A DNA stretch of 32,000 nucleotides. It comes from Xylella taiwanensis. Lineage in GTDB: Bacteria > Pseudomonadota > Gammaproteobacteria > Xanthomonadales > Xanthomonadaceae. A program made the position numbers and the translations under genes. Location: NCBI RefSeq assembly GCF_013177435.1, contig NZ_CP053627.1, forward strand, positions 840,001-872,000, written 5' to 3'. Under the pieces are notes generated by a model. That model did no database searches and was not told the origin of the DNA. It was given only the letters and a program-made list of their open reading frames with translations. Below are positions 6,318 through 20,878 of the stretch, piece after piece; the stretch's first letter is position 1, and each line of letters begins with the position of its first letter.

Positions 6318-6904
6318 GGGGTACAGGGTTGTGTGTAATGCTCGAAGGAATGCTTCCGACTTCCCCTGGTGGATTACTCCGCTTGGAGACTAGAAGTGGA
6401 TGGAGGAGGGCAAAGAGAGAACACATCCAGAAGTGAATCCTTTATAGGAGGCACACGTTGGTAGTAGTTCAACGAGCTACATAAGGCTAATGGTGGAGCA
6501 ATCTTGGAGTTAACTCTGAAATTTGGAAACAATAAACGTCTTTCGCTGGGTGAGAAGCGAGACGGATGATCGCCATTCAGTAAAGAGTTTGGGAAGAGGG
6601 AGCAAGAGTGTGATTGGTTTATTAGCGTATTTCTGGTTGGTGAAAGTGCAGCTTGAAGCGAAACTCGAATGGGTAGTGCTGCTCAAAATGTTGAGTCATC
6701 TGGGGTTGTGGTGAGGTTGGCACGCTGCCGCCGGTTTTCTGGAGGAGGGCAGGCAGCGTATCTTCGGCTTAAGTGGAGCTAAGGTTGTCAGTGCTCTGGA
6801 TTGCAGCGTTCCTGAACATTAAATGCTGTATTCGGTAGTGAATTTCTTAAGTTAGCTTATTTAGAATGGTGTTCCGTTAGCTTTTCGATCATATTCATAG
6901 ATGT

Positions 6905-6934
6905 CTATCGTTAAGACATATGCCTTAACGATAG
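6905..6934 (-). terminator. Perfect 11-bp stem-loop just downstream of the SMP-30-family gene
   Basis: CTATCGTTAAG (6905-6915) pairs with CTTAACGATAG (6924-6934) around an 8-nt loop. There is no clear U-tract, so its function (terminator or binding palindrome) is uncertain. Confidence 0.3.
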
Positions 6935-6949
6935 CGATAACATGAGTAT

Positions 6950-7972
6950 TCAGTGTTTACTCTCCTTTACTTTTATTTTTAGACGGTAAATTGCGTGGCT
7001 TGCTGTTACATAAAGAATGGGGTTATTCGCTTTATCCAGTGAAAAATTCATATTACTGACAGTGCCAGGTAGGATAATTTTTCCAAGACGTTTTCCTTTG
7101 GGGGAAAATATTTGAATACTTCCTTCACTACTTGACCATATATTACCAATGGCATCGGTGGCGATACCGTCTGGTATGCCATGTGAAACAGTTGCAAGCA
7201 CTCTTCCATTTTTGAGTGATTTATCTTTTTTAATAGTGTAAGCGACAATTCTGCTGTTGAGATTGGAAGAGTTAAAATTATAGGCTAATTCACTGTCTGC
7301 GATATAAAGAGTCTTTTCATCAGGGCTGAGAGCGATCCCATTAGGTGCTTTGACAAGAGGAGTTTTCAAGCGAACAATGGTTCCCGTTTTTGGTGAGTAT
7401 CGATAGCTGTAATCTCCTCCTTGTACTGCTGTACCGCCGTAGCTTTCTTTAGGATTATTGATACCAAATGCAGGGTCAGTGAACCATATATCGCCACTGC
7501 GATCGACGATGATATCGTTTGGACTGTTCAGTTTATGTCCTTGATAAGCATCGATGACTATCATCCACTTTCCATCTTTTTCGAGCCGTTCTATCGCTCT
7601 TTTCCCATGTGAAGCTGCGAGTAAGCGTCCTTCATTGTCTAATGCATGGCCATTTTGGAAATGTGACGGTTCCAAAAAGACGGAAACTCCTTCTCCTTCT
7701 TGCCAACGAAGCACACGGTTTGCCTTGACATCGCTCCAGATAAGGCTACCGTCAGGTAAGGCTTGAGGTCCCTCAAGCCAAATCCCTTTGTCATAGATGG
7801 TGATGAGTTCAGGTTCTTGATCGATAAGAGTTTCAAAAAGTGGATCTTCTTTCTGAACTTGAGCGGTGTGAATTTTAGTGTGATGTTGTGTTGCTATCCC
7901 GTAAAAGGGAAGCGTTAACAAGAATCCGGCTATGATGATGCGAGTAAAATAATTATTTCGTTTGGTTTTCAT
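6950..7972 (-). CDS. Secreted SMP-30/gluconolactonase/LRE-family six-bladed beta-propeller protein
   Basis: The N-terminus looks like a signal peptide (MKTKRNNYFTRIIIAGFLLTLPFYGIA). Family motifs are present: WLEGPQALPDGSLIWSDVKANRVLRW, LNSPNDIIVDRSGDIWFTDP, PNGIALSPDEKTLYIADS, IPDGIATDAIGNIW. Codon usage is AT-rich. Confidence 0.85.
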   Translation of the reverse strand: MKTKRNNYFTRIIIAGFLLTLPFYGIATQHHTKIHTAQVQKEDPLFETLIDQEPELITIYDKGIWLEGPQALPDGSLIWSDVKANRVLRWQEGEGVSVFLEPSHFQNGHALDNEGRLLAASHGKRAIERLEKDGKWMIVIDAYQGHKLNSPNDIIVDRSGDIWFTDPAFGINNPKESYGGTAVQGGDYSYRYSPKTGTIVRLKTPLVKAPNGIALSPDEKTLYIADSELAYNFNSSNLNSRIVAYTIKKDKSLKNGRVLATVSHGIPDGIATDAIGNIWSSSEGSIQIFSPKGKRLGKIILPGTVSNMNFSLDKANNPILYVTASHAIYRLKIKVKESKH

Positions 7973-8572
7973 GAAATCATCCTTTTTTGTTTCTTAATGA
8001 ATTACATATGGCTATTGTTTGAGGGCCTATTTTAGGGTGGTTATTTTACAAAACTATCACAGGACCAGCCAGCAGTATTTTATGGGTATTTGTAGAGATT
8101 GCATTAATACATGTCACTTGATCTCATGATGAGAAATTAAGAAAGGGAGCATGTTTTTTTGCTGGTAAATTTCGCATACATCTTGGCTTGTTGTGTAGTG
8201 ACGCATCAGATGTGGGTGCTTGGAGAAAATTTTTGTCGTTGTGGCAATTGTCGTTTTATAAATGTGGAATATTATTTTTATGTTGATGGTTGTTGTGTTA
8301 TTTTTTTCTGGGTTTCTATCGTGGTTGAGCGAGTTTCTGGGTGGTTTTAAAATTGCAAGAAATTTTATTTGTCTAATTTATGGTTCATATAAAATCTTAG
8401 GATGGGAAATTCTTTATTTTGAGTAAATTGCGACCAATGGTTTTATCCATTTTTGATGGTATGCCGCTGCCGTGCTGTTGCTCAAGTAAAATGGAGTGAT
8501 GATGTGACTATTGATATTTCAGAAGTATATTCGTGCATGTGCTGGTGATACTGCTACGGTGTCGATAGATGT

Positions 8573-16049: not shown

Positions 16050-16181
16050 TCATGTGCTGAACTGTAATTTCGGGGTTATTTTATTGCTCACGCTGTACGC
16101 GATTTTTTTAATATAAAGCCATAAAATTTTTTTATTTAATTATTTAGTGAAAAAACGAATGAAATTCTATCCGTATTTGGA

Positions 16182-16197
16182 TTATCCACCTGGATAA
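16182..16197. promoter_or_regulatory. Perfect palindrome TTATCCA-CC-TGGATAA upstream of the peptide array
   Basis: A 7-bp perfect inverted repeat separated by 2 nt. The half-site plus spacer, TTATCCACC, is one mismatch from the DnaA-box consensus TTATCCACA. It is a candidate operator of unknown function. Confidence 0.3.
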
Positions 16198-16263
16198 GTG
16201 CTGTTGTTTGATTTTATTGATGTTATTTTCCAGTAGTATTTTCTCTATTGACAATGTTTCCCG

Positions 16264-16326
16264 TATGTGATTTCCTTCGGGATGTTCTCTAAATAATGTG
16301 TCTTTCGTCACATAATTTTAATGTGT
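16264..16326. promoter_or_regulatory. Cluster of four ATGTG(A/T) motifs 55-117 nt upstream of the first peptide gene
   Basis: TATGTGA lies at 16264-16270, TAATGTGT at 16294-16301, TCACATA (inverted) at 16308-16314 and TAATGTGT at 16319-16326. The last two form the imperfect palindrome CACATAATTTTAATGTG. Confidence 0.3.
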
Positions 16327-16380
16327 AACACGTTAAATAGAGTGGAGTACATCAACGTCAACTTTGGAGAGTAAGCAACT

Positions 16381-16554
16381 ATGCGTACGATCAATGCAGC
16401 AGAAATGGAAGAAGTTTCTGGTGGCAGTTTGGGCCTGGCGGCTCTTGGGGTAATTGGGACAGCTATTACCTTATATAAAAATGTTTCTTATATTTATAGT
16501 TCAGTTACAGATTTTATAAGTGGCTTTGGTTTGGGTTACAATAAAAAGTCTTAA
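16381..16554 (+). CDS. Double-glycine-leader peptide P1 (57 aa), putative class II microcin/bacteriocin precursor
   Basis: Translated by hand; too short for the ORF track. Sequence: MRTINAAEMEEVSGG|SLGLAALGVIGTAITLYKNVSYIYSSVTDFISGFGLGYNKKS. GGAGAG lies about 10 nt upstream. The 15-aa leader ends in GG. Confidence 0.75.
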   Translation: MRTINAAEMEEVSGGSLGLAALGVIGTAITLYKNVSYIYSSVTDFISGFGLGYNKKS

Positions 16555-16610
16555 GTGTGTTTATCTAGAGATTTTCTAAAAATTATTGAAATTTAGGAGT
16601 TAATACAGAG

Positions 16611-16778
16611 ATGCGTGAGCTTAGTAAAGTGGAAGTAGACCAAGTTTCTGGTGAAGGTATGTGGGAAGATATCGGTCAAACTACAGGTACGGTTTTCCGT
16701 TGGTTTGCAGACAGCATCACTTCATTATTTGGTGCAGGTTTTTTCTCATTATTTAGTATCTTTAATAAAAAATCTTAA
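16611..16778 (+). CDS. Double-glycine-type-leader peptide P2 (55 aa)
   Basis: Translated by hand; not in the track. Sequence: MRELSKVEVDQVSGE|GMWEDIGQTTGTVFRWFADSITSLFGAGFFSLFSIFNKKS. AGGAG lies upstream. The leader is homologous to P3-P7 but has Glu at the -1 position. Confidence 0.7.
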   Translation: MRELSKVEVDQVSGEGMWEDIGQTTGTVFRWFADSITSLFGAGFFSLFSIFNKKS

Positions 16779-16823
16779 GCGAATTTAATAGAGCTTTTTA
16801 TTGAAGTCAGGAGTTAATTAGAG

Positions 16824-16985
16824 ATGCGTGAGATGAGTGAATTGGAAATTGAAAGGATTTCTGGTGCGGGCATATGGGATGATTTGAGTACAGGTGTCAA
16901 TATTGTCTTTCATTGGGTTACAGTCAATATTGATGATATTAAGGCATTCTTTAATGGATTCTATCAAGGTTACAATAAAAAATAA
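16824..16985 (+). CDS. Double-glycine-type-leader peptide P3 (53 aa), core paralogous to P2
   Basis: Translated by hand; not in the track. Sequence: MREMSELEIERISGA|GIWDDLSTGVNIVFHWVTVNIDDIKAFFNGFYQGYNKK. AGGAG lies upstream. Confidence 0.7.
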   Translation: MREMSELEIERISGAGIWDDLSTGVNIVFHWVTVNIDDIKAFFNGFYQGYNKK

Positions 16986-17040
16986 TAAATCCGTTTGTTG
17001 ATTTTTTATAAATTAATCAAGTCGAAAGGAAAATTTAGAA

Positions 17041-17262
17041 ATGCGTGAGCTTAATCAAGTGGAAGTTGAACAGATTTCTGGTGCAAGTGGTGGTGGTCGT
17101 GGCGGGCTTTTAGGCGCAATTTTTAATAATATATTAGGTGGTTTGTCCCCTGTATTTAACAATAGCCCTGTTTCTTTTAATCCTTTTAACATTTTTAACC
17201 CTTTAAAAATTTTAAATCTTTTAAAGCCTGCTTCGTCTGTCCTTGAGAATAGTAAATCTTAA
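17041..17262 (+). CDS. Double-glycine-type-leader peptide P4 (73 aa), FNP-repeat core
   Basis: Track ORF. Sequence: MRELNQVEVEQISGA|SGGGRGGLLGAIFNNILGGLSPVFNNSPVSFNPFNIFNPLKILNLLKPASSVLENSKS. AAAGGA lies upstream. Confidence 0.8.
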   Translation: MRELNQVEVEQISGASGGGRGGLLGAIFNNILGGLSPVFNNSPVSFNPFNIFNPLKILNLLKPASSVLENSKS

Positions 17263-17325
17263 CCTTAACCTTTACCTTTAGAGTAATTTTTTAACGTTTC
17301 ATAAATTAAAGAGGTGAGTTTAGAA

Positions 17326-17535
17326 ATGCGTGAGCTTAATCAGGTAGAAGTTGAACAGATTTCTGGTGCAAGTGGTGGTGGTCGTGGTGGGCTTTTAGGC
17401 GCAATTTTTAATAATATATTAGGTGGTTTGTCCCCTGTATTTAACGATAGCCCTGTTTCTTTTAATCCTTTTAACATTTTTAATCCTTTAAAACTTTTAG
17501 AACCTATTACTAAACTTCTGAGTGGTAAGTCTTAA
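17326..17535 (+). CDS. Double-glycine-type-leader peptide P5 (69 aa), near-duplicate of P4 with a different C-terminus
   Basis: The track ORF starts at 17314. The ATG at 17326 aligns with the other cassettes and follows AGAGGTGAG. The first 56 codons differ from P4 at 5 nt, 4 of them synonymous. Confidence 0.8.
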   Translation: MRELNQVEVEQISGASGGGRGGLLGAIFNNILGGLSPVFNDSPVSFNPFNIFNPLKLLEPITKLLSGKS

Positions 17536-17586
17536 ATCTGTTTGTTAGGCTTTTTTAAATTAATAAAATGAATCGGGGGGTTAGAG

Positions 17587-17829
17587 ATGCGTGAGCTTAA
17601 GCAAGTGGAAGCTGAACAGGTTTCTGGTGCATTTTCTATTTCTATTGCAATTTTTAATAATATAGTGGGTGGTTTATCTTCTGAGTTTAAGGATGCCGCC
17701 ATTTCTTTTAATCCTGTTAACATTTTTAACCCTTTAAAAATTTTTAAACCTGCTATGCCTAGCCTTGAGACTAGTGAGTCTAATATTATGGCTAGCCTTT
17801 GGGGTCGTTGTTTTAAAGCTAAGTCTTAA
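17587..17829 (+). CDS. Double-glycine-type-leader peptide P6 (80 aa)
   Basis: Track ORF. Sequence: MRELKQVEAEQVSGA|FSISIAIFNNIVGGLSSEFKDAAISFNPVNIFNPLKIFKPAMPSLETSESNIMASLWGRCFKAKS. It shares the IFNNI.GGLS and SFNP.NIFNPLK blocks with P4 and P5. Confidence 0.78.
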   Translation: MRELKQVEAEQVSGAFSISIAIFNNIVGGLSSEFKDAAISFNPVNIFNPLKIFKPAMPSLETSESNIMASLWGRCFKAKS

Positions 17830-17875
17830 AATTGGTTTGTTAGTTTTTAAATTAATGAATGAGAAGAATTTAGAG

Positions 17876-18070
17876 ATGCGTGAGCTTAATCAAGTGGAAG
17901 TTGAACAGGTTTCTGGTGCATGTTTGAATACATTTTTTAGTAATTTATTAAGTGGTTTGTCCGGTTTGTTTAGTAGTAGTACTGTTTCTACTGATCCTAC
18001 TACGTCTAGCCTTGCGGCTAGTGCGTCTAGCTTTCTGACTAACTTTCTGAGTGCTTTTTTAAAGCGTTAA
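17876..18070 (+). CDS. Double-glycine-type-leader peptide P7 (64 aa), Ser/Leu-rich core
   Basis: The track ORF 17765-18070 is over-extended. The ATG at 17876 aligns with the cassette starts. Sequence: MRELNQVEVEQVSGA|CLNTFFSNLLSGLSGLFSSSTVSTDPTTSSLAASASSFLTNFLSAFLKR. Confidence 0.75.
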   Translation: MRELNQVEVEQVSGACLNTFFSNLLSGLSGLFSSSTVSTDPTTSSLAASASSFLTNFLSAFLKR

Positions 18071-18165
18071 GTCTTAAATCTGGCTACTAGATTTTTTATA
18101 AACCAAAGATTTGTTGTAAAAGGCAATCTTAAACCATTATAAGTTGTATCTTTAGCTTCGTTTAT

Positions 18166-18195
18166 GCCCCTTCATAGTTAATTCTCTGAAGGGGC
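18166..18195 (+). terminator. Stem-loop downstream of the seven-cassette array
   Basis: GCCCCTTCA (18166-18174) pairs with TGAAGGGGC (18187-18195): a 9-bp perfect stem and a 12-nt loop. The T-tail (TCTTG) is weak. Confidence 0.45.
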
Positions 18196-18532
18196 TCTTG
18201 ATAGCAGCACAGCAGTTGCACTGCATAGTGTTATCTTCACTATGACTGTTGATGGATAGTGTCATGGCATTGTGTGTGGTCATGTTTTTTTATGTGTTTC
18301 GATTGACACCCATTGTTTGATGTCGGGTTAACTTAGATGGAAGATTAAAGTTGCCATCCATCATGTCTGATCAATCTCCTGATTGTGCGAATGGATTGTT
18401 TGAGTCGCTGTGTTTATTTAAGGAGGAATACTAATAGATAGCATAGATAGCAACGTATTTTGGATTGGAAATTGCCGGGTATGTTCCCGGCCCCAAGACG
18501 CAGGGGATGCGTCAATCAAAAGGAGTAAGTCA

Positions 18533-18784
18533 ATGCGTACATTATCTGTTGCTGAGGTTTCAGAGGTTTCTGGAGGTAACCCTATGACTGATGGTGCATC
18601 AATTGGGGCTGGTTTCGGTGCTTTTGGTAGCATTATGACTGGTGCTACTTCAGCGGCTACAATTGGCGCATCTGCCGCCACATGGGGATTGCTTGGTGCG
18701 GCTGCGGGAGGAGGTTGGATGGTTGGAACATTTATTTATAATAGATTCTTCGCTCCTTCTATGTCTGCTTCTATTGCTTATTGA
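18533..18784 (+). CDS. Glycine/alanine-rich double-glycine-leader bacteriocin precursor P8 (colicin V/microcin V-like)
   Basis: Sequence: MRTLSVAEVSEVSGG|NPMTDGASIGAGFGAFGSIMTGATSAATIGASAATWGLLGAAAGGGWMVGTFIYNRFFAPSMSASIAY. The leader closely resembles the microcin V leader MRTLTLNELDSVSGG. AAGGAG lies 7 nt upstream. Confidence 0.85.
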   Translation: MRTLSVAEVSEVSGGNPMTDGASIGAGFGAFGSIMTGATSAATIGASAATWGLLGAAAGGGWMVGTFIYNRFFAPSMSASIAY

Positions 18785-18793
18785 GGAATAAAA

Positions 18794-19039
18794 ATGATGA
18801 ATATACATGAGCTATCACCTTCTGAAGTAATGCAAATTGATGGATCCGGCATGGCTGAATGGGTCGATACAGGCGCTGCTATTGGCATGATTGCAGGTTA
18901 CGCTATTCAGGGAGGTTTGGCTGGTGCAAGCCGAGGTGGACTTATTGGAGCTGCTGGTGGATTTTCTGGTGGATTAGGTTGGGGGGTTGGAACATTTATT
19001 TATAATAGATTTTTATCTCCTTATCCGATGATTCGTTAA
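18794..19039 (+). CDS. Glycine-rich bacteriocin precursor P9, paralog of P8
   Basis: Sequence: MMNIHELSPSEVMQIDGS|GMAEWVDTGAAIGMIAGYAIQGGLAGASRGGLIGAAGGFSGGLGWGVGTFIYNRFLSPYPMIR. The leader fits the consensus if cleaved after Gly-Ser. It shares the W.VGTFIYNRF block with P8. GAGGA lies upstream. Confidence 0.8.
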   Translation: MMNIHELSPSEVMQIDGSGMAEWVDTGAAIGMIAGYAIQGGLAGASRGGLIGAAGGFSGGLGWGVGTFIYNRFLSPYPMIR

Positions 19040-19050
19040 GTTTAATCTGT

Positions 19051-19077
19051 GTGGGCACTATGATTTTGGGTGCCCAC
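19051..19077 (+). terminator. Stem-loop between P9 and the first immunity-like gene; possible partial terminator or mRNA-stability element
   Basis: GTGGGCAC (19051-19058) pairs with GTGCCCAC (19070-19077): an 8-bp perfect GC-rich stem and an 11-nt loop, followed by CTTT. Confidence 0.4.
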
Positions 19078-19093
19078 CTTTAAAGGTGATGAA

Positions 19094-19390
19094 ATGAACA
19101 AGTTTAAAGCCATGATGATTGCCTTCGATGATTGTATTGCATCGAATCTTTTGGCGGAAGGGGTCAGCAGACTCCGGATGAAAATGGTTTTTTTTACGGG
19201 GTTTATTTTTGTATTTTTATATATTGTGTTTACGGATATAGATATTGCCTCATTCGATGTTGGGATGTGCGTGATACTTGTGATTGCTCTCTCTATAGGC
19301 TTGTTATGTATAAATCGTTATTTTAAAAGTCATTTTCATGCTGATGGGAGTCTAAAGAAAAAAAAGAATAGTTCTGAAGATGCAGTTTGA
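19094..19390 (+). CDS. Small two-TM membrane protein, putative bacteriocin immunity protein (copy 1)
   Basis: The track ORF starts at a GTG at 19070, inside the hairpin. The ATG at 19094 follows AGGTGA. Hydrophobic segments are MVFFTGFIFVFLYIVF and MCVILVIALSIGLLCI. It lies directly downstream of the P8/P9 precursors. Confidence 0.6.
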   Translation: MNKFKAMMIAFDDCIASNLLAEGVSRLRMKMVFFTGFIFVFLYIVFTDIDIASFDVGMCVILVIALSIGLLCINRYFKSHFHADGSLKKKKNSSEDAV

Positions 19391-19459
19391 ACAAGAATAA
19401 TGGGTCAGGTATAAATCAGTGAAACTTAAAATAATACTATTACAGGTGGAGCATTCAGC

Positions 19460-19738
19460 TTGAAATCTATGATTGTTGCATTTAATAATTTCATTAAATT
19501 ATATCTTCCGGTGTGTGGCAGGTTCTTTGTGAAACTTTTTGGATTTATTAGCTTTATTCTAGTGTTTTTATATTCTTCGGATATAGATCTTTCCTCATTG
19601 GATATTGGAGGAGCGGCGATACTTGCGGTTGCTCTCTCTGCATGTTTATTATTAACAAATCATTATTTTGACATTCATTTTCATGATGATGGGAGTCTTG
19701 AAGAAAAAAAGGATGCCTCTGATGAGGTAACTAGGTAA
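19460..19738 (+). CDS. Small two-TM membrane protein, putative immunity protein (copy 2, paralog of 19094-19390)
   Basis: It aligns with copy 1 across the shared pattern (M)I.AF..(I), F..FI.VFLY, DID..S.D.G, IL..ALS..LL..N.YF..HFH.DGSL..KK. The start is the TTG at 19460 (GGTGGAG upstream) or the ATG at 19469. Confidence 0.6.
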   Translation: MKSMIVAFNNFIKLYLPVCGRFFVKLFGFISFILVFLYSSDIDLSSLDIGGAAILAVALSACLLLTNHYFDIHFHDDGSLEEKKDASDEVTR

Positions 19739-19744
19739 CTGGCC

Positions 19745-19835
19745 CTGAGTAATCGGAGTAGGCACAAATCAGCGCGGTTTGAAACGTTACTATGACAAAT
19801 GGAGCACGCAGTCTTTTTTAAATGATTGTTGCGGT
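19745..19835 (+). pseudogene. Decayed third copy of the immunity-gene 5' region
   Basis: The spacer plus start after copy 2 (...AAATCAG...TGAAAC...TACTAT.ACA..TGGAGCA..CAG...ATGATTGTTGC) aligns with the spacer plus start between copies 1 and 2 (19391-19480). Homology is lost about 12 nt into the ORF. Confidence 0.5.
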
Positions 19836-20878
19836 ATTTTCTAAATGCGGATCCCTTCATGGAAATTGTTTCCCTTGCGCCATCCAGATCCAGAGAAGCG
19901 GCTATTTACTACAGCCGTGGTTAGCATTGAGCGATCCGGCGATGAAAAACATGCTTTACGAGATCACCTCCTGGGGTTGTATGGTCAAAATGACAGAGTG
20001 AGATTTTTCCGTCATTCTGTCGTACAAAGGCTGATCGATCCTCGGCATGCAATATGACCCATCTTGCCACGAGGCGACGTCAAGTGGTGAGTGCTGGCAC
20101 TGGCAGAGGGATAGTGACGTAGGCATAGCATGATGTGCTTTCAGGTGGGATCGCTTGGCTGTGCTGGTGATGGTGGATTGCCGAACCGTTGGTTGAACTC
20201 CGTAAAATTGAAACTCTGATTTCTGAAGGGCTTTAGAGATTGATCTCAAGTCTGTTGATCAGTGTTGCTAACAGCGTCGTTAGTGTGACTCTTGTCACAA
20301 TATTGAATGTTTGATAGATCAAGTCGCGTGGAAGGCGTCGCCGTGAGTAGGCGGGGCAGCCGCGTGACATATGTTATGTTGGCTGGATTGGTGGTGAACA
20401 CCAATGGGGTGAACATATTTTGGCGGCCTTAGCTAATTTGGGGTCAAGTGCCGCCCAGGGGCTTGAAGTTCGTTGTGTAATTGCTTGTGCGTTGCTTATC
20501 TGTCCCTATCGATGGTGATCATACAGTTGCCCGGCAATGTGGGTTCCAGGTGATGTCCCCAGTACATCTGCAGGATGTGCGATGTATCCACGGTAGTGGG
20601 AACGATATGTTCAGGATGCCACCTTTAATCCGGAAGATGTCAGCGGTGAGAGGCCACACATTGGTGCGGACGTGAGCGGGGCTGTTGCGGTGGCATTGGT
20701 CTTTCTGCCGGCAATAGATCACCGGTGTGTGGATTCATGGAGGATCAAAGTCACGGTTGTTGAGTACTGGGATCGCGCCTATGGCTACCAAGTTTTTTTA
20801 GGTGGATGACACATTGGTGCTGGATGCTGCTTTTCCCTTGCTTGCATCGGGGGGGATTGTTAGGCTACCCGGCTTTAA

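Follow-up and report, generated by a model that had tools for sequence, protein, structure and literature searches.

Seven tandem double-glycine-leader peptide genes between thrE and mreB of Xylella taiwanensis, two of which look like lactococcin G relatives

The window, that is, the whole 32-kb stretch of the Xylella taiwanensis chromosome analysed here, carries seven small ORFs arranged head-to-tail on the + strand between thrE and mreB. P1 (16381-16554) encodes 57 aa, with the leader MRTINAAEMEEVSGG and a B-type core resembling lactococcin G beta, whose C-terminus is DFISGFGLGYNKKS with GxxxG. P2 (16611-16778) encodes 55 aa, with the leader MRELSKVEVDQVSGE and an A-type core resembling lactococcin G alpha, GMWEDIGQTTGTVFRW, in which residues 7-11 form GxxxG. 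P3 (16824-16985, 53 aa, leader MREMSELEIERISGA) has a chimeric core with an A-type N-terminus (GIWDDL...VFHW) and a B-type C-terminus (AFFNGFYQGYNKK). The other four have cores of a second superfamily (superfamily II). P4 (17041-17262, 73 aa, leader MRELNQVEVEQISGA) contains a Gly patch, FNNILGGLS and FNP repeats; P5 (17326-17535, 69 aa) is a recent paralogue of P4; P6 (17587-17829, 80 aa) has an extended C-terminus; and P7 (17876-18070, 64 aa from the ATG, leader MRELNQVEVEQVSGA) has a diverged core that starts with Cys and is Ser/Thr-rich.

The ORF list and inspection of the spacers bore out the arrangement described in the initial annotation, with spacers of 45-63 nt and a purine-rich run 5' of every ORF. 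The same annotation expected that genes this short would easily be missed by gene callers. They were not: all seven are present in NCBI assemblies as 'hypothetical protein', and some are named 'Bacteriocin' in UniRef. G+C content drops to 34% in the array from 52-55% on either side. Genes around the array are thrE, the Mla system, mreBCD, mrdA, rodA, queA and relA/spoT-like genes, and the scans gave no Rfam or tRNA matches.

The seven ORFs are real and almost certainly coding. All are intact in about 31 X. taiwanensis assemblies, and in nucleotide alignments of relatives all 17 of the 17 indels were multiples of three; the indels that separate P4 from P5, P6 and P7 are in frame, and so are those of P6. 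Leader dN/dS was 0-0.4 in most comparisons, with a maximum of 0.61 where it could be computed. Core dN/dS was 0.2-0.9 for most, and a single X. fastidiosa paralogue pair, at 1.1, was the sole comparison not below 1; dS of the flanking genes was about 0.53. P7 and its orthologue from a Xylella sp. MAG gave a dN/dS of 0.42. The P4/P5 substitution pattern was recounted with the same outcome (5 nt differences over the first 56 codons, 4 of them synonymous), and the core dN/dS of this pair was 0.4. As the initial annotation supposed, the leaders are conserved, and by these dN/dS values the cores evolve fast. It is extremely improbable that the ORFs are decaying remnants or non-coding repeats without a protein product. 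A frameshift in a T7 run of P2 in one public assembly, the atypical -1 residue of P2 and the pseudogene state of the neighbouring Gly-rich genes in many X. fastidiosa strains would fit such decay, but the intact ORFs, the in-frame indels, the dN/dS values below 1 in all comparisons but one, and orthologues that are both transcribed and detected as protein largely refute it.

Each of the seven peptides begins with a 15-residue double-glycine leader that follows the consensus at -12, -8, -7, -4, -3 and -2, with Ala at -7 in P6. A degenerate leader DNA pattern matched exactly the seven array sites, with 0 expected from 100 shuffles, and a repeat finder recovered the seven leader copies as one family (D3). 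The -1 residue is Gly, Ala or Ser in six of the seven. In P2 it is Glu (SGE|GMW; codon GAA, 16653-16655), which is atypical and a misfit to the known cleavage site; P2 orthologues have Ala. Of the consensus first claimed for all seven, positions -12 to -2 stand and Gly/Ala at -1 does not stand for P2. The predicted mature peptides have 38-65 residues, within the size of class II microcins (<10 kDa). In a scan of genome contigs, the degenerate pattern found the same leader type in 28 small peptide genes of other Proteobacteria; Xylella was absent among these loci, so the comparison within the genus was made by exact-protein look-ups. These leader features support the assignment of the array peptides to the double-glycine-leader type that C39-peptidase ABC transporters export.

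When the seven peptides were scanned against Pfam, NCBIfam and PHROGs, all matches were sub-threshold and most were to the leader. Weak matches to the BlpC model (E 0.025-0.16), and the fact that double-glycine leaders are common to such peptides, would suit BlpC/ComC-type pheromones controlling bacteriocin production or competence. However, the BlpC matches are confined to the leader, the mature peptides are far longer than such pheromones, and seven paralogues are ill-suited to one signalling circuit. No histidine kinase or response regulator was present in the locus or its syntenic copies, and we consider a pheromone role very improbable. Like the prochlorosins (ProcA/ProcM), the array joins a single conserved leader to a range of different cores, and as many as seven consecutive precursors could be taken for RiPP precursors of the 'one leader, many cores' kind served by a promiscuous modifying enzyme. 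This analogy, drawn in the initial annotation, did not hold up. Prochlorosins, being lanthipeptides, depend on ProcM and on cores rich in Cys, Ser and Thr, whereas the array cores have at most one Cys each. Neither the 32-kb window nor the syntenic loci, with their housekeeping neighbours, yielded a modification enzyme, and the bacteriocin that P1 and P2 resemble is an unmodified one of class IIb. There is hardly any chance that the peptides are RiPP precursors. The RiPP precursor, pheromone and pseudogene readings were all rejected.

The cores had been sorted into at least four unrelated types, which was overstated; by sequence comparison they fall into two superfamilies. P4 and P5 share 91% DNA identity over 214 nt (repeat family D5; repeats D4-D6 cover P4), and P6 matched both of them with z 21-22. 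P7 is homologous to P4-P6 (Smith-Waterman z 5.7-8.5; DNA identity 76% over 68 nt, repeat family D6) and matched its Xylella sp. MAG orthologue with z 9.9. P2 and P3 are related (z 8), and a C-terminal module is common to P1 and P3 (z 5.6). For P3, z was 7.8 with LcnG-alpha, 6-13.6 with B-type cores and 21 with its Xylella sp. MAG orthologue. By these scores, P3 is an A/B chimera, P1-P3 are linked to one another, and P4-P7 are a single family found only in Xylella. Profile comparison could not link superfamily II to A-type or C-type cores, and these two superfamilies are the only ones without a detectable tie. The P4-P7 cores are Asn/Phe/Ser/Gly-rich, and neither protein database look-up nor profile comparisons found a homologue of known function for them. 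AlphaFold models had low confidence (pLDDT 65 and 55) and support a helical tendency only.

That none of the peptides resembles a known bacteriocin does not hold for P1 and P2. The A profile had a sole match in the PDB, LcnG-alpha (2JPJ), with E 0.0033 and in register with the mature N-terminus (+1), so that profile position 16 aligns to residue 1 of mature LcnG-alpha as defined by experiment. With hhalign, the A profile gave 94.4% against LcnG-alpha and the B profile 68% against LcnG-beta (P 4.8e-5), while the cross-controls (A against beta, B against alpha) gave 0.1-0.4%. Scores of the cores alone were likewise partner-specific, with z 7.6-8.3 against alpha and 4.4-4.7 against beta for the right partner; the P2 core had z 8.3 against alpha and -0.9 against beta. 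The P1 core matched XF1305-type, Stenotrophomonas and metagenome B peptides with z 6-13. NCBIfam models NF038035 (alpha) and NF038034 (beta) assigned the A peptides to alpha and the B ones to beta, with scores far under the 37-bit cutoff (P2, 13 bits against NF038035; P1, 15.6 bits and E 0.014 against NF038034; best relatives, 23 and 25 bits). The lactobin A/cerein 7B model TIGR03949, with a cutoff of 21.5 bits, did not match P1 and gave 14.4 for XF1305 and 15.4 for the MAG orthologue; two distant B relatives passed it, one at locus L054 (38 bits) and one from Stenotrophomonas (26.2 bits), the latter being named accordingly by NCBI. As single sequences, the P2 core matched the PDB with E 0.16 and P1 had no match. 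The family scores being under cutoff and the single-sequence searches weak or empty, the homology rests on profiles and intermediate sequences.

Both aligned GxxxG motifs, whose functional role is known from lactococcin G mutagenesis, are kept: GQTTG in P2 corresponds to G7xxxG11 of alpha, and GFGLG in P1 to G18xxxG22 of beta. In the alignments, LcnG-alpha residues 1-16 (GTWDDIGQGIGRVAYW) pair with the N-terminal end of mature P2 (GMWEDIGQTTGTVFRW), and LcnG-beta EFIKGFGKG with P1 DFISGFGLG. P1 and P2 therefore look like remote homologues of lactococcin G beta and alpha, respectively, and this is the new result here; a literature search found no paper mentioning both lactococcin G and Xylella.

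Like the class IIb bacteriocins lactococcin G of Lactococcus lactis and enterocin 1071A/B, P1 and P2 are encoded by two adjacent small genes with double-glycine leaders. Adjacent A and B gene pairs recur in at least four lineages, among them Stenotrophomonas, L052 and L054/L055; in Stenotrophomonas and in metagenomes the pair adjoins C39-peptidase ABC exporters. Unlike lactococcin G, the Xylella pair has a Gram-negative host, the gene order B then A and no linked exporter, and it sits within an array of 3-7 genes together with a chimera and an extra family; the C-terminal halves of P1 and P2 also differ, with an NKKS tail and longer hydrophobic stretches.

As for lactococcin G, relatives of P1 and P2 are linked to C39 ABC exporters. 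A Peptidase_C39 ABC transporter adjoins the A/B relatives in L049/L051 and L054, together with a membrane-fusion protein where the contig allows, and at L056 a single A-like relative is adjoined by both. The proposed link of the array to C39-peptidase exporters gains support from these distant relatives, which directly adjoin such transporters. An exporter was not found within the 32-kb window. When the Stenotrophomonas C39 transporter was used as query, no Xylella protein was among the matches listed (at least 120), and those of them with a named source came from Stenotrophomonas, Xanthomonas, Pseudoxanthomonas and Luteimonas. The literature reports cvaA and cvaB in X. fastidiosa.

We propose that the 15-residue leader of each precursor would be recognised by a C39-peptidase ABC exporter acting with a membrane-fusion partner and TolC, probably of the CvaB/CvaA type and encoded elsewhere in the genome, and that the precursor would be cut after the Gly-Gly/Ala site and then released. 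P1 and P2 would supply the beta-like and the alpha-like half, respectively, of a two-peptide bacteriocin of the lactococcin G type; by analogy, they may associate by GxxxG contacts between helices and make the membranes of competitors permeable. The receptor of lactococcin G is UppP. P3 would be a recombinant of the two halves, and P4-P7 a Xylella-only family of additional secreted, probably membrane-active peptides. Taken together, we consider it moderately probable that the array consists of tandemly duplicated and diversified double-glycine-leader peptide genes in a low-G+C island of the X. taiwanensis thrE-mreB interval, that its products are exported and that P1 and P2 act as a two-peptide pair.

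The thrE-mreB locus is syntenic in the genus and carries three, five or seven array genes (X. fastidiosa, Xylella sp. MAG and X. taiwanensis). Most X. fastidiosa strains have three and some pauca strains five. The X. fastidiosa locus, also between thrE and mreB, shares the leaders and both the B-type and A-type cores, but it is without P4-P6 type genes, and its third array gene belongs to another type, derived from A and carrying a variable PGTTT repeat. The X. fastidiosa genes are XF1305, XF1306 and the third gene (also XF9a_01194-01196; B9J09_RS08200); the XF numbers were matched to these ORFs by position, size and accession rather than through a locus-tag table. B9J09_RS08200, the third gene, had 115-193 normalised reads against 4-5 for thrE. 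XF1306 has been reported among the most expressed CDSs of X. fastidiosa and was called a microcin in a 2025 preprint, and mass spectrometry has detected three 7-kDa X. fastidiosa proteins encoded between the Mla genes and mreB. The orthologues are listed in the cellular proteome table and absent from the secreted one. The X. fastidiosa orthologues are already known, having been annotated since 2000, found to be highly expressed and, in one case, named a microcin; the locus is real but only partly new.

The array has two kinds of neighbour that bear on its function. Two Gly-rich, MccV-like double-glycine peptides (18533-18784 and 18794-19039, + strand; weak Pfam MccV match) lie next to it, outside its families, and are often frameshifted in X. 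fastidiosa. They are followed by two paralogous small membrane proteins (19070-19390 and 19460-19738, + strand; z 27), which are candidate immunity proteins. X. fastidiosa has kept an orthologue of the latter (z 24-31); no family was matched in scans of Pfam, NCBIfam and PHROGs, and comparison with the small membrane proteins that accompany A/B pairs in other lineages showed no similarity. Nor did candidate immunity proteins of different lineages resemble each other. No ORF, and hence no immunity gene, is interleaved in the array, the two membrane proteins lying 1 kb downstream, past the Gly-rich peptides.

The peptides might take the same export route and yet act on the producer population or its surroundings, through autolysis, biofilm matrix, surface activity or lysis of host or vector cells, like the Neisseria Nap peptides. 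The nap island of Neisseria is reported to encode double-glycine bacteriocin-like peptides that are without antibacterial activity and promote autolysis. The lack of dedicated immunity genes inside the array, the very high expression in pure culture, the abundance of the orthologues in cell extracts with their absence from the secretome list, and the Asn/Phe/Ser/Gly-rich cores of P4-P7 all suit such a role. Against it, P1 and P2 resemble a well-characterised pore-forming bacteriocin down to both aligned GxxxG motifs, MccV-like peptides and candidate immunity proteins are in the locus, and a conserved leader with fast core evolution is typical of antagonistic toxins; we judge this role unlikely.

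Contact-dependent toxins retained at the surface, like CdzC/CdzD of Caulobacter, leave by type I export and aggregate on the producer, which would suit xylem flow. A survey of Cdz-like systems predicted them in X. fastidiosa with XF0262 as seed, the array orthologues are cell-associated in proteomics, and cores of the P1 type combine a hydrophobic stretch rich in Gly and Ala with a short, charged C-terminal end. But the Cdz criteria need glycine-zipper repeats, which fit the downstream Gly-rich peptides and not P2-P7, and the specific matches are to lactococcin G, a diffusible two-peptide bacteriocin. Toxins of this kind are quite improbable here.

Microcin V and the streptococcal blp loci are also among the closest known systems. 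Like microcin V (CvaC with CvaAB-TolC), the array peptides are Gram-negative products below 10 kDa with a very similar 15-residue double-glycine leader, to which Pfam MccV matches weakly, and the same expected export route, and MccV-like Gly-rich peptides adjoin them. Unlike in class IIa microcins, the cores are unrelated to known microcin cores; a known microcin consists of one peptide, whose gene is adjoined by that of its immunity protein and, in most cases, of its exporter, and two microcin papers, a review among them, make no mention of two-peptide systems. The comparison with streptococcal blp loci was apt, as both have several peptide genes in a row, one double-glycine leader type, strain-variable content and mosaic paralogues; blp loci, however, carry immunity genes between the peptide genes and, in cis, the BlpAB exporter and the BlpC/H/R signalling circuit, all of which are absent from the array locus. 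Seven precursors are indeed many for a Gram-negative locus, since most loci recovered here hold one or two peptides. In the survey of Cdz-like systems, most loci encoded a single toxin, with two toxins in 14% and three in 5%.

Species of Xylella are plant pathogens under quarantine. In X. fastidiosa the transcripts of the orthologues rank with the most abundant, and the encoded proteins have been detected. If P1 and P2 do work as a lactococcin-G-like pair, class IIb bacteriocins would cease to be confined to Gram-positive bacteria and would form a new type beside the single-peptide microcins; P1 with P2 and P1 with P3 would then be concrete candidate pairs against competitors in xylem or insect foregut, and such peptides could serve as narrow-spectrum agents or as Xylella markers. 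The series of three, five and seven genes, the A/B chimera and the genome-uniform leaders offer a compact example of toxin-array diversification compatible with a single exporter. More speculatively, the array might be a combinatorial kit in which alpha-like, beta-like, chimeric (P3) and P4-P7 peptides with one genome-uniform leader give different membrane-active complexes from different pairs, or its peptides might act on the producer's own population in autolysis or biofilm, as the lack of interleaved immunity genes and the very high pure-culture expression would allow; we regard either as doubtful.

Upstream of P1, the region 16248-16312 (+ strand) contains TTGACAAT (16248-16255) and the palindrome TGTGT-N6-TCACA (16297-16312). 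These blocks are invariant or nearly so in an alignment of the spacer from thrE to the first peptide gene in X. taiwanensis, two X. fastidiosa lineages and the Xylella sp. MAG, and the region is possibly the promoter or a regulator site of the array. Scanning for consensus promoters gave no useful signal (8 promoter-like sites, with 13.5 expected). Downstream of P7, a G+C-rich hairpin with a 9-bp stem lies at 18166-18195 (+ strand; fold of 18071-18230, z -2.5). The terminator scan, which called 0 terminators, passed it over because it is without a canonical T-tract, and the hairpin possibly marks the end of the array transcript.

The array of seven small tandem ORFs (P1 to P7, numbered 5' to 3') lies within a low-G+C island at about 16050-20500, with a G+C content of 34-40% compared with 52-55% in the flanks. 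Housekeeping genes border the island on one side (pyrG, kdsA, eno, ispDF, a Mla-type ABC system and thrE), and mreBCD, mrdA, rodA, queA and a relA/spoT-like gene border it on the other. P1 (16381-16554), P2 (16611-16778), P3 (16824-16985), P4 (17041-17262), P5 (17326-17535), P6 (17587-17829) and P7 (17876-18070) are all on the + strand, separated by gaps of 45-63 nt, and a purine-rich run lies 5' of every ORF. Downstream of P7 there is a G+C-rich hairpin (18166-18195), followed on its 3' side by two MccV-like peptides rich in Gly (18533-19039) and by a pair of small paralogous membrane proteins at 19070-19738 (19070-19390 and 19460-19738). A search of the array region for RNA families and tRNAs found none.

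Two blocks 5' of P1 were kept genus-wide, namely TTGACAAT (16248-16255) and a CRP/Clp-like palindrome, TGTGT-N6-TCACA (16297-16312). No convincing -10 element was found at the proper spacing from these blocks, and regulation of the array by a Clp-like factor is only a guess.

P1 to P7 are genuine genes: their leader is conserved, and their cores, meaning the parts downstream of the predicted leader cleavage site, evolve fast. A degenerate DNA pattern for the leader had exactly seven matches, which were the starts of P1 to P7, when 0 were expected from 100 shuffles, and the seven copies were also found independently by a repeat finder. As the initial annotation stated, P4 and P5 differ at 5 positions over 56 codons, and 4 of these changes are synonymous. 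When paralogues and orthologues were aligned as nucleotides without regard to codons, 17 of 17 internal gaps were multiples of three, some of them being one event counted in more than one comparison. Leader dN/dS was 0-0.4 in most comparisons, with a maximum of 0.61 where computable. Core dN/dS was 0.2-0.9 in most comparisons and 1.1 in one X. fastidiosa paralogue pair. For thrE and mreB, dS between X. taiwanensis and X. fastidiosa was about 0.53 and dN/dS was 0.01-0.05, and core dN was ten to fifty times that of the flank genes.

Antisense ORFs of 45-63 aa lie opposite P4 to P6 on the - strand (17055-17192, 17340-17477 and 17532-17723). They are repeated because the sense strand was duplicated, and nothing suggests that they are genes. 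One public read-assembly contains a 58-aa P2 variant (P0007) with a frameshift at a T7 run (window 16739-16745), which may reflect slippage or an error in sequencing. An 892-aa ENA protein from an 8-kb contig (P0016) is also clustered with the 55-aa P2 at 90% identity, probably through an error of gene calling or clustering.

The thrE-to-mreB locus is syntenic throughout the genus Xylella. Most X. fastidiosa strains, including 9a5c (AE003849), have an array of three genes, encoding 72, 66 and 60-70 aa; some strains of subsp. pauca and a Xylella sp. metagenome-assembled genome (MAG) carry five, and X. taiwanensis seven. By position, size and the 9a5c accession AAF84115.1, we infer that XF1305 and XF1306 are the 72-aa and 66-aa ORFs. 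P4 to P6 had no counterpart outside X. taiwanensis; for P7 the MAG contains an orthologue (z 9.9). It had been suggested that gene callers easily miss such short peptides, but all seven are already annotated as 'hypothetical protein' in about 31 assemblies, and some carry the UniRef label 'Bacteriocin'. The third X. fastidiosa array gene varies among strains by one to three PGTTT units (60, 65 or 70 aa), an in-frame repeat polymorphism in its Ser/Thr-rich tail. Among the retrieved loci it spans 5266-5448 in L042, L044 and L047, 5266-5463 in L043, L045, L046 and L048, and 5266-5478 in L041.

Judged by its residues, the 15-aa leader of P1 to P7 is a fit to the double-glycine consensus. The claim that Gly or Ala occupies -1 in all seven failed at P2, which has Glu (SGE↓G), whereas its orthologues have Ala. 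The leader is close to that of microcin V; the Pfam MccV model matched P2 weakly, and only over residues 1-29. One-genome-per-species contigs were scanned with a degenerate DNA pattern for MREL..VE.[ED].[VI]SG. The pattern recurred at 28 loci with <1 expected (estimated from its information content), and the leader is therefore of a generic proteobacterial class II microcin type. Small peptide genes are present at 26 of these loci, in Erwinia, Serratia, Pragia, Limnobaculum, Acetobacteraceae, Pseudomonadales or Xanthomonas albilineans; an ORF scan of the other two (L033 and L040) recovered no leader-bearing small peptide. The scan returned no Xylella contig, although sequences of X. fastidiosa and X. 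taiwanensis do contain the pattern; Xylella may be masked or absent in the scanned collection.

Leader substitutions were common to paralogues with different cores inside one genome. At -6/-5, for example, two MAG core types have Glu-His and the X. fastidiosa orthologues have Glu-Gln. Synonymous sites were also less diverged in leaders than in cores when paralogues were compared. We infer that the uniformity of leaders within genomes reflects concerted evolution, or co-adaptation to one exporter.

Two of the scanned loci, a Limnobaculum/Pragia pair, encode 67-aa double-glycine peptides (L015, 5471-5674, - strand; L035, 5205-5408, + strand) ending in ...WIYSLFNKK. This resembles the P2 end, ...FSLFSIFNKKS, and a C-terminal [YF]NKK(S) may be a wider motif. 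In Xanthomonas albilineans (L031, 1380-3976), a 104-aa double-glycine-leader peptide adjoins 590-aa and 160-aa proteins, and no exporter was found within 8 kb of the peptide; this uncharacterised arrangement differs from the array.

The cores had been sorted into at least four unrelated types. This division did not survive leader-stripped Smith-Waterman comparison against shuffles, which linked the cores of P4, P5, P6 and P7 (z 5.7-33), P2 and P3 (z 8) and P1 and P3 (z 5.6). P7 and P4 to P6 also share 76% DNA identity over 68 nt. With genus-wide homologues included, the cores form two superfamilies, I (P1 to P3) and II (P4 to P7), and profile comparison gave no link between them.

An exhaustive profile search seeded with P2/P3-type peptides retrieved, outside Xylella, sparse small peptides with the same leader and the mature N-terminus G[FVIL]W.D.G..AG, here called A type. 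In Stenotrophomonas (L049 and L051), an A peptide and a second peptide, here called B type, sit divergently beside a 706-aa Peptidase_C39 ABC transporter and a membrane-fusion protein of 416 aa. In other lineages, two tandem A+B pairs and a 108-aa membrane protein come after a C39 transporter in L054, an A+B pair is present in L052, and L056 has a single A-like relative adjoining a transporter and fusion protein. The B peptides and the C-terminal half of P1/XF1305 are homologues (..IY..DF..GF..GYNKK; z 6-17), and all A-by-B cross-comparisons were null. P3 combines an A-type N-terminus with a B-type C-terminus.

Profile evidence suggests that the P1/P2 pair is remotely homologous to lactococcin G beta/alpha, with P3 as a natural A/B chimera. 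Searched against all PDB sequences, the A profile matched only lactococcin G alpha (2JPJ; E 0.0033), and its position 16, the first residue past the predicted cleavage, aligned with residue 1 of mature alpha. The hhalign values were 94.4% for A with alpha (P 9e-8) and 68% for B with beta (P 4.8e-5), while the cross-controls (A with beta, B with alpha) gave 0.1% and 0.4%. With cores only, z against alpha was 7.6-8.3 for Xylella P2-type A cores and P3, and 4.5 for a MAG A/B hybrid; z against beta was 4.4-4.7 for P1, XF1305 and 2 of 3 non-Xylella B cores, and 2.4-3.7 for the other two. The core-only crosses were null except for chimeric P3 against beta (z 2.2), and the P4 to P7 cores matched neither alpha nor beta. 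GxxxG is kept at aligned positions: P2 has GQTTG at alpha G7xxxG11 and P1 has GFGLG at beta G18xxxG22, the two motifs that mutagenesis has implicated in helix-helix pairing of lactococcin G. In NCBIfam, the model matched by A peptides was LcnG-alpha/enterocin 1071A and that matched by B peptides was LcnG-beta/enterocin 1071B; every score fell short of the 37-bit cutoff, and the matches included leader positions. Two B relatives exceeded the cutoff of class IIb model TIGR03949, and the Stenotrophomonas one is named accordingly by NCBI. In single-sequence PDB searches P2 alone reached E 0.16 and P1 alone had no match. Because of these poor single scores and the leader in the NCBIfam matches, the homology rests on profiles, intermediate sequences, the specificity of the controls and the recurrent gene pairing.

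P1 to P7 would be recognised through their shared leader by a putative CvaB/CvaA/TolC-type exporter encoded elsewhere, then cleaved behind GG/GA and released. In X. fastidiosa, XF1216/XF1220 = PD0496/PD0499 are the cvaA/cvaB exporter genes; a search seeded with a Stenotrophomonas C39 transporter gave no Xylella protein among the matches listed. P1 and P2 would together form a two-peptide bacteriocin that permeabilises membranes, P3 could serve as an alternative partner, and P4 to P7 would be further exported peptides. AlphaFold models (pLDDT 65 and 55) point to long core helices after a short helix in the leader, and to no more. Pheromone, RiPP and pseudogene readings of the peptides are poorly supported.

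The two downstream membrane proteins, candidates for immunity, are retained in Xylella also where frameshifts disrupt the Gly-rich genes, and no relatives of them were detected next to A/B pairs in other lineages. In many X. fastidiosa strains the Gly-rich MccV-like genes (about 5936-6480 in L041-L046; cf. window 18533-19039) are frameshifted or truncated. The array genes and a 98-aa membrane protein are intact in such strains; since it stays intact while the Gly-rich genes decay, the 98-aa protein may serve the array or be an orphan immunity gene.

All expression evidence comes from X. fastidiosa. In strain De Donno, B9J09_RS08200 had 115-193 normalised reads per 20,000, compared with 4-5 for thrE and about 100 for ClpX (PMC11885251 supplement). 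This is the third array gene (60 aa, 719 nt 3' of thrE, positioned as in L042/L044). XF1306 is among the 'newly identified microcins' and the most highly expressed CDSs of a 2025 preprint (10.1101/2025.08.15.669762). In proteomes of 9a5c and Fb7, three hypothetical proteins of 7 kDa encoded consecutively, XF9a_01194-01196, were seen with 9, 3 and 11 spectra; they are listed in the cellular table and absent from the secreted table (PMC7555403); their genes sit between the Mla genes and mreB. The most serious rival to a bacteriocin is that the peptides are non-antagonistic, as in Neisseria, where the double-glycine bacteriocin-like Nap peptides lack antibacterial activity and promote autolysis. 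Very high expression of the orthologues in pure culture, their cell-associated detection and an array without interleaved immunity genes all fit such a role, of which Cdz-like contact-dependent peptides are a variant.

As a bacteriocin-like set the Xylella array is in part known already: its orthologues have been annotated, their high expression is on record, and the name microcin has been given to one of them. In the searchable literature, the seven-gene X. taiwanensis expansion with a P4-P7 family confined to Xylella, the A/B pairing kept across lineages and accompanied by C39 exporters, and the pair's remote homology to lactococcin G beta/alpha with a natural A/B chimera appear to be undescribed. 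With the lactococcin G link, the locus gains in specificity and testability over the first proposal. The kind of system is familiar.

A second low-G+C patch (6500-8500, 38-44%) contains an ORF at 6950-7972 (- strand) of 340 aa with a hydrophobic N-terminus. It is SMP-30/gluconolactonase/LRE-like (Pfam SGL, E 4e-37) and is probably another acquired gene.
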